Shown piece by piece: positions 39 to 38,910 of a DNA stretch of 64,000 nucleotides. The notes below the pieces were generated by a model, which saw only the letters and a program-made list of their open reading frames with translations, did not search any database and was not told the origin of the DNA. The stretch lies in the NCBI GenBank assembly GCA_965204375.1, contig OZ241986.1:5216001-5280000 (forward strand). The letters are read 5' to 3'. Position 1 is the first letter of the stretch; each line of letters starts with the position of its first letter. Origin of the DNA: Candidatus Latescibacterota bacterium (lineage in GTDB: Bacteria; Latescibacterota; UBA2968). A program made the translations under genes and the position numbers.

Positions 39-3000
39 GTTTCAATACCCCAGTAGTCGGGTAATCCTTCCTGATATGGGAAGGTATTCACCTGATGATA
101 TTGCGCGGGCAAGTTTCAATACCCCAGTAGTCGGGTAATCCTTCCTGATAAAATGAGCACAGCGTGCTGCTGACCATTCCGTTCACGTTTCAATACCCCA
201 GTAGTCGGGTAATCCTTCCTGATATTGGCGTGAGGGCCGATGATCGCTGGGCGCCAAGCAGGTTTCAATACCCCAGTAGTCGGGTAATCCTTCCTGATAT
301 TGCCGGTGGTGTAGCAGCTGGTGTTGGGGGTCTCGGGTTTCAATACCCCAGTAGTCGGGTAATCCTTCCTGATGAGGACAACTCGCCGGTTAATTGGGAC
401 AAGGCAGATTGTTTCAATACCCCAGTAGTCGGGTAATCCTTCCTGATGGGGAAGGGGCAGACCAAGAACTTAACTGGTGGGAAGTTTCAATACCCCAGTA
501 AGCGGGTAATCCCTCCTGATTTCGATGTTTTCCACACGTCGCTATGAGCATCATATCACCACGTTTCAATACCCCAGTAAGCGGGTAATCCTTCCTGATT
601 ATTTTGATATGCAGATGTCACACGTCTATCTGTCTGAAGTTTCAATACCCCAGTAAGCGGGTAATCCCTCCTGATCAGGCATGCGCGCTGGCAAGGCATT
701 GCTGGACGTGAAAGGTTTCAATACCCCAGTAAGCGGGTAATCCCTCCTGATTTATGGGTGCATTAGCGCAGAGTTTGATTGGGTAGATGATGTTTCAATA
801 CCCCAGTAAGCGGGTAATCCCTCCTGATATGTAAAATCTTTCGGCGTAAGCGTTCGCGTAGAGGAGTTTCAATACCCCAGTAAGCGGGTAATCCCTCCTG
901 ATTAGGAACGGAATCAAATTCAGCATAGGGCGCAGAACAATGACGTTTCAATACCCCAGTAAGCGGGTAATCCTTCCTGATAAGACAGCAAAACAAAGTA
1001 CGCTTGGGCCTTCTGCTATTAGTTTCAATACCCCAGTAAGCGGGTAATCCTTCCTGATCCGAACGGCTAAATTTAGCTTTCTATTTCTTCGTTTCGGTTT
1101 CAATACCCCAGTAAGCGGGTAATCCTTCCTGATGAGATATTAAGGCGTGCCGGACACGCTTGGCTTCCCATTTGTTTCAATACCCCAGTAAGCGGGTAAT
1201 CCTTCCTGATTTCTGGGCGTCAAACGACCTAACTTACTCATCCGACTATGTTTCAATACCCCAGTAAGCGGGTAATCCTTCCTGATCCGCATTATATACG
1301 GACAATCAAGAGACTGTTCTCAAGTTTCAATACCCCAGTAAGCGGGTAATCCTTCCTGATGAAATCCCAACTTGGTAACGCTTGCGCGTCTCGAAAATCT
1401 GTTTCAATACCCCAGTAAGCGGGTAATCCTTCCTGATTACGTGACGCCAACTTCGGAATACACCCCAGCGAATGGAGGTTTCAATACCCCAGTAAGCGGG
1501 TAATCCTTCCTGATGATCGTATCAAGCAGGCACTCGAAGATGGGTGGCATCAGAGTTTCAATACCCCAGTAAGCGGGTAATCCTTCCTGATGGTCGAGGT
1601 AAAGATAGAGGCGTTTGACCACAAGACAAAGTTTCAATACCCCAGTAAGCGGGTAATCCTTCCTGATTATTTCGCACAAATGCAAGTGGAAGTAGTTGTG
1701 TCACAAGTTTCAATACCCCAGTAAGCGGGTAATCCTTCCTGATTGAAGCTGAAATTTCGGCGACTGCTAACATCTTTGACATGTTTCAATACCCCAGTAA
1801 GCGGGTAATCCTTCCTGATAATTTGATCAGGCACTTGCACAGTTGCGACTCATCGAAAGGTTTCAATACCCCAGTAAGCGGGTAATCCTTCCTGATGGGA
1901 CAATCTCAAATTGCCGGACGGTGAGCAGATGAAAATGTTTCAATACCCCAGTAAGCGGGTAATCCTTCCTGATCTGCTCCCCGAACCGATGGAACAGAGC
2001 GACGAAATCACCGAGTTTCAATACCCCAGTAAGCGGGTAATCCTTCCTGATAAAGAGGGGCAAAAAACGGTTGACCTCTTACGCTCTTACGTTTCAATAC
2101 CCCAGTAAGCGGGTAATCCTTCCTGATGCGACTAACATCTTTGACATCTCCGACATTGCTTGGGAAGTTTCAATACCCCAGTAAGCGGGTAATCCTTCCT
2201 GATCGGAACTGAAGATGATGACGAGTGCGCGGTCCTGGGATAAAGTTTCAATACCCCAGTAAGCGGGTAATCCTTCCTGATAAATAGACGCGAAAGTAAC
2301 CAAAGTTTTTGACGGCAAAATGTTTCAATACCCCAGTAAGCGGGTAATCCTTCCTGATAGGGCAAGGTGGAGTCATCGTAAATATGCTTCAAGTTTCAAT
2401 ACCCCAGTAAGCGGGTAATCCTTCCTGATTTAACCATCCCCTTTTAAAAGCATGTGTAAGTGGATCAAGTTTCAATACCCCAGTAAGCGGGTAATCCTTC
2501 CTGATGAGCGATGAGAAGAAAGCTCGACTGCAAAACGTGATTGAGTTTCAATACCCCAGTAAGCGGGTAATCCTTCCTGATGAAGTGAGGGTGTATATAG
2601 GCGGTGCTTGGATGGGTTTCAATACCCCAGTAAGCGGGTAATCCTTCCTGATTCCTTATAGAGGATGGCTACGATAATCAGATGGGTTACAAGTTTCAAT
2701 ACCCCAGTAAGCGGGTAATCCTTCCTGATGAGGAGCGCATTAGCGATTTGGAGGTTGCGCTTAATGAGTATATTAAAGTTTCAATACCCCAGTAAGCGGG
2801 TAATCCTTCCTGATGAACATGGCTATTGAGTTTGGACCTGACGTTGAGTTGGTGTTTCAATACCCCAGTAAGCGGGTAATCCTTCCTGATGATTGGGCGC
2901 GTGCAGTGGTTGCGTGTGCTGATGAAGATAGTTTCAATACCCCAGTAAGCGGGTAATCCTTCCTGATTTCTCCGTTTGTGGTGGTTCTGTGACTGTCTTT

Positions 3001-3961
3001 TTCCAAGTTTCAATACCCCAGTAAGCGGGTAATCCTTCCTGATTATGTGTGCAAAACTTTGTCGAGTCTGGTCTTGAACGAGTTTCAATACCCCAGTAAG
3101 CGGGTAATCCTTCCTGATTTGCACACTTCAGTCTGGAAAAACTTTCAACGTGAACAGTTTCAATACCCCAGTAAGCGGGTAATCCTTCCTGATGACGATA
3201 TGGTGGAACAAGTACTGGCGGCGGCGCACAGCATGTTTCAATACCCCAGTAAGCGGGTAATCCTTCCTGATTGGATGAGTGGAAGCAGAGTTGCTTGGCT
3301 TGCGAAGAGTTTCAATACCCCAGTAAGCGGGTAATCCTTCCTGATTTGGCGGAGTGTGTTACGGCCACAACAAACCGTAGTGTATAGGTTTCAATACCCC
3401 AGTAAGCGGGTAATCCTTCCTGATGAGCAGGCTGAGTGGATGAGTGGTTTGGGTGGTGAACGTGGAGTTTCAATACCCCAGTAAGCGGGTAATCCTTCCT
3501 GATGTGAGCGCGGCGGGATTGAGTTGGACAGAACGCGGCGCAATGGTTTCAATACCCCAGTAAGCGGGTAATCCTTCCTGATTATCAGGAGTAGTTGGTA
3601 TAGCGATTGAATCCCTATTGGTTTCAATACCCCAGTAAGCGGGTAATCCTTCCTGATGGACGGGTATTTTGTGGCGACACTCCACCGGACTACTACAGTT
3701 TCAATACCCCAGTAAGCGGGTAATCCTTCCTGATAACGCGGTTGAATGGTCTCGCACGTCTCGCGGAGGCCAGTTTCAATACCCCAGTAAGCGGGTAATC
3801 CTTCCTGATTCACTGACGGTATCGCGAGGGACAAATCAGTTGGTAGATTTGTTTCAATACCCCAGTAAGCGGGTAATCCTTCCTGATATCATTGACCCGT
3901 TTGGGGAAGAGGAAGTTTTTATTTGTTTCAATACCCCAGTAAGCGGGTAATCCTTCCTGAT
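39..3961 (-). CRISPR. CRISPR array 1 (type III-associated), ~52 repeats of 37 bp, spacers ~34-48 bp; probably continues left of the window
   Basis: Repeat GTTTCAATACCCCAGTAAGCGGGTAATCCTTCCTGAT on +; the reverse complement ends in ATTGAAAC (typical crRNA 5' tag). Variant repeats are at the low-coordinate end and the AT-rich leader and cas genes at the high end, so transcription is on the minus strand. Confidence 0.98.
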
Positions 3962-37031: not shown

Positions 37032-37115
37032 AGCAATCGCGTTATGTAAACACAATGCGAAAAATCAGATTGCGGTGTTGTGGTTGCTTGTATGTAGTTG
37101 CATTTGATTTTCATC

Positions 37116-37261
37116 CTGTTCATCCTTTCATCCTGATAATCCTGATTCAGACTGTGGTTGCTTTTCTGCATTTGATTTTCATCACTGGATAGAATCATTC
37201 CAGTGCAGGCTCTGTTCATCCTTTCATCCTGATAATCCTGATTCAGACTGTAGTTGCTTTT
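37116..37261. repeat. Two direct copies of a ~48-bp CATCCT-rich intergenic repeat
   Basis: CTGTTCATCCTTTCATCCTGATAATCCTGATTCAGACTGT at ~37116 and ~37212. Confidence 0.75.
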
Positions 37262-37383
37262 TTGCCTTTCATCTGTGATTGCTATAATAAAGGAGTAAGA
37301 AAAAAGTTGAGTATGAAGGCCATAGTTGCCAAATTCGAAGAGGAAGAAAAAACCATTTCATTATATTCTTCGAGGAGGCAACC

Positions 37384-38652
37384 ATGGCCAAGACGCACAA
37401 GCATTCGCAGTATGTTTCTCCCAACACCTTAATCATTGGGATCGATATCGGTAAACAGGTTCACTTTGTCAAGATGATGTTAGATGGTATGCAGATCGCC
37501 AGTTTTAAACTCTACAACGAAGGTCGCGCCTTTATGTCTTTGCTGCAAAAGATTCAACAGGTTAAGAACCAACATCAATGTACCGCGTCCCTCATTGGTA
37601 TGGAACCTACCGGACATTACTGGTTGCCGTTGGCCTACTTTCTCCAAGCTCATAAGCAGCCTTTTGTCATCGTCAAGCCTTCCCACGTGCGCTGGTCAAA
37701 GGAACTGGCAGACAACAGTCCCTTGAAAACAGACCAAAAAGATGCCAGCGTCATTGCCGAGTTAGTGCGTCAAGGCACCTATCACAGTGCCTATCTCCCT
37801 GAAGGGGTCTATGCCCATTTGCGGACATTGACCGCGATGCGCTATCACAAGAAAGACCAAATCGCAGCGACTAAAAACGTGCTTCATCGTATCCTAGATG
37901 TATGCTTCCCTGAGTTTGTGACCCTCTTTAGCGACCTGTCTGGCAAAACCGCCCGACAACTTCTGAGCGTGGCACCGACGCCTTTGCAGATACAAGCCCT
38001 TGGAATAAAAAAACTTACGGCCTTGATCCGCAAGGCATCTAATCATCGCCTCAGTAAAGCCAAAGCCAAAGCTGTGCTCAAGGCGGCCAGAGCTTCTATT
38101 GGCGTGAGCCAGGGTTTGGACAGTGTCTGTATGGAACTGTCTCAGACCCTCTGCTTACTTGAGCTTCTTAATACCCAACTGCAAGAGATCGAAACCCGTC
38201 TGCAAGAGCACTTACAAAACATACCACAGGCAAGATATATGTGCTCAATCCCTGGCATAGGACCTATCACGGTCGCCTCCATACTCGGTGAAACAGGGCC
38301 CTTCACTGCTTATGATGCCCCTGAAAAACTCATCAAACTGGCTGGCTTAAATCTCTTTGAAATCTCTTCAGGACATAAAAAGGGCAGGAGAAGGATCGCC
38401 AAACGCGGACGATCCAGACTCAGACGCATACTCTATACAGCTATCTTGCCCCTCATCATACATAATCCCATATTCAATGAGACCTATCACCGATTCAAAG
38501 AGGCAGGAAAACCCAATCAAAAAGCCTTTGTTGCACTGTGCACGAAACTCTTACGCATCCTGTTTGCACTGGTCAATAAACAAGAAGTATTTAATACCGA
38601 CTTCAACACGAGGAAGAATCACAAAGCACAAATCGCGCCCAAAGCGGCTTAA
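37384..38652 (+). CDS. IS110-family DEDD recombinase
   Basis: GIDIGK, GMEPTG, KTDQKDA, SIPGIG, AGL....SSG. Confidence 0.95.
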   Translation: MAKTHKHSQYVSPNTLIIGIDIGKQVHFVKMMLDGMQIASFKLYNEGRAFMSLLQKIQQVKNQHQCTASLIGMEPTGHYWLPLAYFLQAHKQPFVIVKPSHVRWSKELADNSPLKTDQKDASVIAELVRQGTYHSAYLPEGVYAHLRTLTAMRYHKKDQIAATKNVLHRILDVCFPEFVTLFSDLSGKTARQLLSVAPTPLQIQALGIKKLTALIRKASNHRLSKAKAKAVLKAARASIGVSQGLDSVCMELSQTLCLLELLNTQLQEIETRLQEHLQNIPQARYMCSIPGIGPITVASILGETGPFTAYDAPEKLIKLAGLNLFEISSGHKKGRRRIAKRGRSRLRRILYTAILPLIIHNPIFNETYHRFKEAGKPNQKAFVALCTKLLRILFALVNKQEVFNTDFNTRKNHKAQIAPKAA

Positions 38653-38825
38653 GCTCCTGGGATGAGCGGGACAGAACTGTGATGAACATGCGGGCTTTGA
38701 CCCTGAATCTGTGACGTGTTCGCCTGCCTCTCAGGAGCTTGAATGAAGCAATTTAAGGGCACAGACCCTCGATGACATACCTGTGTAAAGCCCTGAGACA
38801 TAACCGGCAGGATTAACCGCTCGAC
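38652..38825 (+). ncRNA. Putative bridge RNA/seekRNA
   Basis: Guides for target (GATGAACA, ATCTGTG) and donor (AGCAAT, ATACCTG), each pair flanking a GGG..CCC hairpin; AAGCTCCTG/CAGGAGCTT closing stem. Exact ends are uncertain. Confidence 0.75.
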
Positions 38826-38910
38826 TCTCGTTTTTGGCACTTTTATCACTTGACTTTCTTATACCTGTTCATCTGCGTTCATCTGCGGATACTTTTTTTG
38901 GGAGTTTTTT

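Follow-up and report, generated by a model that had tools for sequence, protein, structure and literature searches.

What decides where a mobile element lands, when the site it occupies is one unit of a short repeat dispersed through its host's genome? The question is raised by an element in a 64,000-nucleotide stretch of DNA (the window) from a Candidatus Latescibacterota bacterium (GenBank assembly GCA_965204375.1, contig OZ241986.1, positions 5,216,001 to 5,280,000 of the forward strand), which a sequence-only reading had interpreted as an IS110-family element with a bridge RNA programmed against that repeat. We consider it very probable that this element is an intact insertion sequence belonging to the IS110 family, broadly defined, with a bridge RNA (or seekRNA) of ~160 nt encoded downstream of its gene that reads both the target and the element's own ends. 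The anatomy and boundaries of the element, the correspondence of its guides with target and ends, the structural covariation of the RNA, the intact catalytic residues and the insertion into host repeats are directly supported by the data. The bispecific downstream guide RNA with a TG core that had been proposed is upheld by guide/target covariation, a confirmed empty site and RNA structural covariation.

Target guides in the sister copies

The strongest evidence for a guide function, on comparison of related sequences, is natural reprogramming. A protein search of 61 genomes recovered 15 copies in five of them and none in 40 genomes of other genera. The five belong to a single genus, to which Latescibacteria/Latescibacterota genomes are the closest named records. 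All 15 share the ends ATTGCTATAAT.. and ..CTTATACCTG and have TG at both junctions. The copy at 92% amino acid (aa) identity has identical guides and sits at TTTATCTG-TG / TTTATCGG. Thirteen copies at 77% aa identity occupy (G/A)AGCGG-TG / TACAA(C/A).., mostly in a different, hairpin-forming host repeat. At the position of the right-target guide GATGAACA they carry GTTGTACA, the complement of TG-TACAAC, and at that of the left-target guide ATCTGTG they carry AGCGGTG (AACGGTG in L035), with AGCAAT, ATACCTG and the ends unchanged. In L126, a copy from a metagenome, the right-target guide takes a third form, GATAAACA, and the site of this copy, TTTTATCTG-TG / TCTATCTGCG (TG-TCTATC), has one mismatch to that guide. 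Junctions at contig ends of genome G014 and in remnants of genomes G000 and G002 have TTCATCTG-TG as left flank and TCCATC or TTCATC as right flank, all within the repeat (T/C)(T/C)ATCTG-TG / T(T/C)CATC, and the left flank ..(T/C)(T/C)ATCTG-TG recurs at other copies. The flanks of other copies had been named as a check on the original interpretation: their ends are shared, and their targets change with the guides. The genus thus offers a legible natural case of bridge-RNA programming, with three target-loop alleles on one scaffold and host repeats matching each.

Each of the five genomes has repeats of both target 13-mers (ATCTGTGTTCATC in 1-16 copies, AGCGGTGTACAAC in 7-22), and reversed-pattern controls gave 0. 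The sister target TACAACTG(G/C).., seen in the right flanks of L033-L045, is the left arm of a REP-like hairpin repeat (e.g. tacaactggtcgatttccagaccagttcat); the two target-loop alleles would therefore aim at two host repeat families, which coexist in all five genomes. In the G014 draft, contig breaks fall within the element at three left junctions and three right ones (L215-L219), so the ATCTG/TTCATC allele must be present there beyond the two assembled copies. With one copy of the other allele (L037) as well, G014 harbours both alleles together.

The host repeat at the present site is a dispersed tandem 10-mer, (T/C)CATCTG(C/T)G, usually of 2-6 units and ending ..CATCTGCGGAT. In the 6.34-Mb genome TTCATCTG[CT]GTTCATCTG occurs 31+25 times and ATCTG[CT]GTTC 76+49 times (TG form 16+9, CG form 60+40), an 18-mer pattern search gave 126 overlapping matches, and the guide-specified ATCTG-TG-TTCATC is present in 11+3 unoccupied copies. 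Homing to ATCTG(C/T)GTTC repeats, as first proposed, therefore holds for the targeting of host repeats and for the TG core but is too wide, since the guides specify the TG form and not the commoner CG form, which lacks the TG core.

Each guide and hairpin quoted in the sequence-only reading lies where that reading placed it. The agreement between guides and DNA exceeds chance. It was judged by shuffling the 197-nt non-coding stretch 200,000 times at the mononucleotide level and counting matches at least as long. Single guides were matched by chance in 2509 (left target plus core, 7-mer), 488 (core plus right target, 8-mer), 2278 (left donor plus core, 7-mer) and 8524 (right donor, 6-mer) shuffles, both target guides together in 10, and all four guides in 0/200,000.

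The boundaries were read from unoccupied sites. A metagenome contig from another study (run X5) links 37275 to 38866, skipping 1590 nt with 2 ambiguous letters. The joint is what an empty site retaining one TG should look like. On its shorter side the contig has 59 letters, and its depth value indicates that it continues into the downstream gene. In the sister species G016, G018 and G003 both flanking genes are adjacent and the locus is unoccupied, and in G012 (97% identity across the downstream flank) the orthologous spot reads ..gcctTTCATCTGCGTTTATCTGCGGATAC.. or, in a second extract, ..ttttttgcctTTCATCTGCGTTTATCTGCGGATACttttttt.., and is element-free. Because of the X5 junction and these unoccupied loci, the element is placed at 37278-38867, inserted site-specifically and with no target duplication beyond the shared TG. 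This agrees with the empty site that had been deduced from the letters alone, and the span first given (37276-38890) is correct at its left edge and in the sequences quoted, but its last 23 nt are host repeat: the terminus CTTATACCTG falls at 38867 and is followed by TTCATCTGCGTTCATCTGCGGAT. When the ends are abutted with one TG, TTGACT and TATAAT come to lie 17 nt apart (12 nt from the right end, 5 nt from the left), giving TTGACT-N17-TATAAT, exactly the promoter that had been predicted for the junction of a putative circle.

Fold of the RNA, donor loop and recombinase

The structure proposed for the RNA (Table 1) is well supported among close relatives. Across eight distinct close sequences 98.5% of cells are paired, against <=60.6% in slid-partner controls, and four pairs change on both sides (one in P1, one in P2 as C-G/U-G/U-A, and two in P4). 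A covariance model (R1) was built from the structure of these eight RNAs and searched at E<=0.001 against 100 loci with recombinases 35-42% identical, whose record titles are mostly Bacillota. It gave 66 matches in 65/100 of these distant loci, all on the gene strand and downstream of the open reading frame (ORF). A second search, covering the 8 seed loci, one locus per distinct earlier match and 41 further metagenome loci, gave the 66 matches that make up alignment A5. Among its 63 distinct sequences 91.9% of cells are paired vs 66.0% in shuffles and <=49.4% in slid controls; 30/33 pairs change on both sides, 524 compensatory cells are seen vs 155 expected, and covariation takes in 16/16 pairs of P4-P6 and 2/3 pairs of P7.

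An alternative 10-bp 5' stem (38653-38662 with 38729-38738) would compete with P5/P6. The latter were preferred, as they are stacked on P4 with its compensatory changes and covary widely, and the sole informative change for the alternative stem (G8 to A, L035) is compatible with both foldings. Searched against Rfam 15, the RNA had no match at gathering score, the best E-values being at chance level and in the flanks. This absence is uninformative because the experimentally studied ISEc21 locus and two distant relatives likewise match nothing. R1 could serve to annotate a clade of downstream-encoded bridge RNAs missed by Rfam 15. One locus (L085, a Halonatronum record) has two R1 matches of equal score, 2842-3002 and 3581-3741, 739 nt apart and downstream of one recombinase gene, with a third, partial match at the locus end; the double match may be a tandem duplication of the RNA module.

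The second loop can be followed beyond the genus. In the close clade donor guides and ends are invariant, which is consistent with a donor-reading loop and provides no test of it. In distant relatives AGGAAT(G) replaces AGCAAT, and the sequence shared by paired copies begins ..AG / CATTCCT..; on the other side ATGGGAGG or variants replace ATACCTG. Variants of the left-donor guide (GGGAGG, GATAGG, AGAAGG, GGAAGG, AGGAGG) recur 112-194 nt downstream of their own RNA in 26/43 loci with at least 250 nt there. The one pair with a readable right boundary, L079/L083, has the terminus ..GAGGGAGG, and in the Aneurinibacillus pair L086/L121 only ~10 nt are shared beyond the RNA, so that its right end is undefinable. 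Donor guides change together with the element ends between clades. For the left target in these distant relatives, the 7-mer before CATTCCT is found in the locus's own target arm in 9/27 loci vs 25/684 cross-pairings.

Both same-sense guides match one base further on product junctions than on substrates (38714, 38784). In both alleles ATCTGTG+A corresponds to the left junction LT-TG-A(TTGCT) and ATACCTG+T to the right one, LD-TG-T(TCATC or ACAAC) (LT, left target; LD, left donor). These one-base extensions are weak, yet reminiscent of the handshake pairing of IS621 (Hiraizumi et al., 2024, PMC11208158).

The recombinase matches PF01548 (N-terminal DEDD RuvC-like; E 2e-30, residues 18-176), PF02371 (C-terminal Tnp; E 5e-22, residues 284-369) and NCBIfam NF033542 'IS110 family RNA-guided transposase' (229.4 bits vs a cut-off of 140). 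Its Tnp domain matches the solved transposase chains of ISCro4 (E 2.6e-8) and IS621 (E 2.1e-6), and no other part aligns significantly. In alignment A6, composed of the 422-aa protein, a sister copy, three distant relatives and ISEc21, residues D21, E74, D117, D120 and S329-G330 are invariant, and S329-G330 aligns with ..YESG.. of the IS621 chain. Judged from these alignments, D21/E74/D117/D120/S329 correspond to the catalytic set D11/E60/D102/D105/S241 of IS621 (PMC11208158). ISEc21, a validated IS110-group transposase, is 18% identical to the 422-aa protein; a plasmid search returned solely 'IS110 family' names (ISBth13 at 30% identity, ISMav6 at 28%), and the nearest relatives are ~400-aa proteins with record titles mostly Bacillota. 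The identification as an IS110-family recombinase is thus secured by both Pfam domains, by NF033542 above its cut-off and by the invariant catalytic residues.

Proposed mechanism, alternatives and known systems

In the mechanism that we propose, the RNA forms a closing stem around two arms, each a stem with an internal loop and a hairpin. The first loop reads the target, and the second likewise reads the abutted element ends (AGCAAT for ATTGCT, ATACCTG for ATACC-TG). By analogy with IS621 and ISEc11 (PMC11208160, PMC11208158, PMC11187229), the element would be excised as a circle, its junction forming TTGACT-N17-TATAAT, and from this promoter the recombinase gene would be transcribed, with read-through yielding the RNA. 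A recombinase tetramer would hold target and donor via both loops, and strand exchange at the TG core between circle and target would leave no target duplication. The present copy is programmed for the TG form of the host 10-mer repeat, and sister copies in the genus for another host repeat.

A number of observations weigh against this account or reduce its force. Transcription, an RNA-protein complex, circle formation and present-day activity are steps that we infer. The genome, assembled as one contig, has a single full copy while 14 perfect 13-mer targets stay free, and present activity is therefore doubtful or low. The right-donor guide lacks the core, and some natural sites mismatch the right-target guide once (TCCATC, TTTATC, TCTATC). 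No circle junction was found among the assembled contigs compared, which cannot show rare forms, and the one contig from an RNA library (X16, 1626 nt), which spans 37264-37934 and 38209-38866 with a diverged middle, cannot demonstrate transcription. Folding of the RNA, which had been suggested as a check, gave an indistinct single-sequence structure (z = -0.36; 73/200 shuffles fold equally well). RNAalifold independently recovers P1 and P3-P7. For P2 the manual register differs from that of RNAalifold (GAAC/GTTC), the latter failing in L033, where the manual register is compensated. Most stem pairs are invariant in the close clade, and A5 was fitted to the model structure, so that its counts are biased toward that structure; the fold is nevertheless convincing, given how many pair types occur and how low the slid controls fall. 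For the right-target guide, the distant relatives gave exact 8-mers with an assumed AG core in 0/27 loci and exact 6-mers in 2/26 vs 11/646 cross-pairings.

It is somewhat unlikely, and still deserves serious consideration, that this is a genuine bridge-RNA element that no longer moves, a recently fixed or silenced single copy with its anatomy intact and its activity lost, for example through lack of expression. One full copy and a 181-nt right-end remnant beside 14 empty perfect targets would fit such an element, as would the decay in relatives, with fragments only in G002 and a deleted remnant in G006, and the integrated copy itself, for which no convincing sigma-70-like promoter was predicted apart from one weak site within the ORF. 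Against this stand a full-length ORF with intact catalytic residues, guides identical to those of the 92% copy, and a polymorphic locus, whose empty form in run X5 points to recent movement or gain. Moreover, an IS110 element is expected to stay silent as long as it has not circularised, and a low copy number is therefore no sign of death.

That the downstream RNA is no guide at all seems very improbable. It would then be a small RNA of the 3' untranslated region, a terminator, a regulatory element or a selfish module like ssr9, and its matches would be by-products of copied target and end sequences. The ssr9 RNA downstream of the ISPpu9 transposase gene is reported to be dispensable and to move by itself (PMC12288879), solo 3' fragments of the present element exist, and the RNA belongs to no Rfam family. 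However, both target strands are matched at fixed positions of one loop, and these matches change with the flanks in three alleles on a constant scaffold; the second loop tracks the ends between clades, no shuffle reproduced all four matches, and the ISEc21 locus, itself unmatched, deprives the Rfam result of meaning. It is harder still to credit that the protein, or else the structure of the repeat DNA, selects the target and that the RNA matches are a coincidence. Both targets are host repeats that possibly form hairpins, but the insertion sites of recombinases with 77% identity are unrelated in sequence, and their differences are exactly those between the RNA loops; the shuffle test also opposes coincidence.

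Like the IS1111 elements ISEc11, ISKpn4 and ISPa11 (Siddiquee et al., 2024, PMC11187229), the element has a longer non-coding region downstream of its transposase gene (215 nt, vs 106 nt upstream). Short matches to both target strands are found in its RNA, the one to the top strand lying 5' of the one to the bottom strand, an order also reported for IS1111-family seekRNAs (PMC11187229). A junction-formed promoter (here from sequence), the lack of target duplication and natural reprogramming between relatives, there ISEc11 vs ISXne4, are further likenesses in that source. Unlike IS1111 transposases (330-350 aa) the recombinase has 422 aa, which falls within the 395-455 aa of the IS110-proper subgroup (PMC11187229), and its nearest relatives are of ~400 aa, mostly Bacillota-titled. 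One criterion for the IS1111 subgroup is a subterminal inverted repeat of 7-17 bp. The 10-bp subterminal repeat TATAATAAAG / TATAAGAAAG matches at 9/10 in near-symmetric positions and is not beyond chance, with an equal or better local alignment in 381/2000 shuffles. The term 'IS1111-type' used in the sequence-only reading thus suits the layout (downstream RNA, top-strand guide 5' of bottom-strand guide) but not the protein. From its sequence we place the element in the IS110 family in the broad sense; membership of the IS1111 subgroup is not established. Some IS110-type elements are mentioned in PMC11187229 as having a downstream non-coding region, and the combination of an IS110-type protein with a downstream RNA is therefore already acknowledged in print.

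The element resembles IS621 and ISCro4 (Durrant et al., 2024, PMC11208160; Hiraizumi et al., 2024, PMC11208158) in its DEDD RuvC-like and Tnp domains with a catalytic Ser-Gly, in a bispecific RNA whose two loops carry left and right guides for target and donor, in a core dinucleotide that target and donor share, in a predicted sigma-70 promoter at the junction of right end and left end, and in the targeting of REP-like host repeats. It differs from them in that the RNA lies downstream, not upstream, of the gene, the guide order is reversed in each loop, the core is TG rather than CT, and a long-range stem closes both arms. In addition, the right-donor guide is without the core, the protein is ~95 aa longer, and only the Tnp domain aligns significantly. 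With ISPpu9/ssr9 of Pseudomonas putida KT2440 (PMC12288879) it shares IS110-family membership, a position in host repeats, a downstream RNA gene and solo copies of the RNA module. By that account the RNA of ISPpu9 is dispensable for transposition and its circles have no hybrid promoter, whereas here the RNA carries guides, the junction would give a promoter of consensus type, and the break in the solo pieces falls within the RNA.

The RNA-guided mechanism was described in 2024, and the element is a clear further example that leaves the understanding of the mechanism unchanged. A more speculative proposal, which we think rather improbable, is that of a bridge-recombinase lineage not yet described as such, in which self-templated deletion recurs, or modules are made by the recombinase, in a way peculiar to RNA-guided insertion sequences. 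Such a lineage would combine ~400-420-aa recombinases of IS110-proper type, from Bacillota and Latescibacteria/Latescibacterota records, with a downstream RNA of IS1111 style in which a long-range stem closes the two guide arms, and the lineage's core would differ between clades (TG here vs AG in distant relatives). The clade may already have been placed by Supplementary Table 5 of Durrant et al. or the supplementary trees of Siddiquee et al. For tool building, a TG-core recombinase with a compact RNA and two naturally validated guide sets would be a reasonable candidate for testing.

Solo remnants, locus and host repeats

The idea of a self-templated deletion arose because the guide DNA repeats the left junction and because two independent remnants start at guide DNA. 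The solo right-end remnants L002 (G000 C1:1602043-1602223, -) and L220 (G002 C1:187463-187642) have differing flanks, and both begin at left-target-guide DNA (..ATCTGTG[TG]ACGTGTTCGCC..), that of G002 exactly at the repeat. The guide template at 38707-38714 (ATCTGTGA) is an 8-bp direct repeat of the left junction at 37271-37278. A deletion between these repeats yields exactly the G002 form; the G000 form carries an additional TG. R1 still scores the G000 remnant at 122 bits. Such remnants may mark a route of decay inherent in the element, or a module produced by the recombinase, like that reported for ISPpu9/ssr9.

Table 1. Features of the element and its flanks, in window coordinates
Feature	Position	Strand	Remarks
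Insertion sequence, 1590 bp	37278-38867 (equivalently 37276-38865)	+	TG at both junctions
Left target half TTCATCTG	37268-37275	+	Last unit of host 10-mer repeat
Core TG, left	37276-37277	+	Last unit of host 10-mer repeat
Left end, 106 nt non-coding	37278-37383	+	Starts ATTGCTATAAT; sequence kept in relatives
Right-donor sequence ATTGCT	37278-37283	+	
-10 box TATAAT	37283-37288	+	
Shine-Dalgarno GAGGAGG	37372-37378	+	
Recombinase gene, 422 aa	37384-38652	+	DEDD RuvC-like and Tnp domains; only long ORF
Bridge/seek RNA core, ~160 nt	38664-38822	+	Closing stem P1; two arms
Stem P1	38664-38669 with 38817-38822	+	RNAalifold; G-C to A-U compensatory change in 4/8 sequences
Target-binding arm	38670-38720	+	Stem P2, internal loop, distal hairpin P3
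Stem P2	38670-38674 with 38716-38720	+	Register provisional; C-G to U-G and U-A in sister copies
Right-target guide GATGAACA	38681-38688	+	Complement of core TG + TTCATC
Hairpin P3	GGG 38692-38694 with CCC 38701-38703	+	Between target guides
Left-target guide ATCTGTG	38707-38713	+	Same sense as ATCTG + core TG; pairs with bottom strand
Donor-binding arm	38723-38811	+	P4, P5, P6, internal loop with donor guides, hairpin P7
Stem P4	38723-38728 with 38806-38811	+	Two compensatory changes in L035
Stem P5	38730-38735 with 38792-38797	+	Covaries in wide alignment
Stem P6	38737-38740 with 38788-38791	+	Covaries in wide alignment
Right-donor guide AGCAAT	38747-38752	+	Complement of left end ATTGCT; core not covered
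Hairpin P7	GGG 38757-38759 with CCC 38766-38768	+	Between donor guides
Left-donor guide ATACCTG	38777-38783	+	Same sense as right end ATACC + core TG
Right end	38850-38867	+	-35 box TTGACT 38850-38855, left-donor ..ATACC, core TG 38866-38867; unchanged in 8/8 distinct relatives
Right target half, host repeat TTCATCTGCG TTCATCTGCG GAT	38868-38890	+	Outside element; terminator-like score

The neighbouring genes are divergent and encode a DMFA2_C-domain protein (-) and an FGGY carbohydrate kinase (+). The element lies in the intergenic region between them, 43 bp upstream of the kinase start codon, so the description of the repeats as safe sites in the sequence-only reading is an assumption only.

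To the left of the element (37100-37260) is a second dispersed host repeat, ttcatcctttcatcctgataatcctgattcagactgt(a/g)gttgctttt, present here as two tandem units and dozens of times elsewhere in the genome. The 10-mer is frequently its neighbour, and the two may both be parts of one composite intergenic repeat. Other contig joints around 37070-37155 arise from host repeats. On the right, at 38871-38890, the 10-mer repeat with a T-run (ATCTGCGTTCATCTGCGGAT ACTTTTTTTG) scores as intrinsic-terminator-like on the + strand. Many copies of the 10-mer repeat elsewhere come after G+C-rich hairpins, and this repeat family may mark the ends of transcription units.

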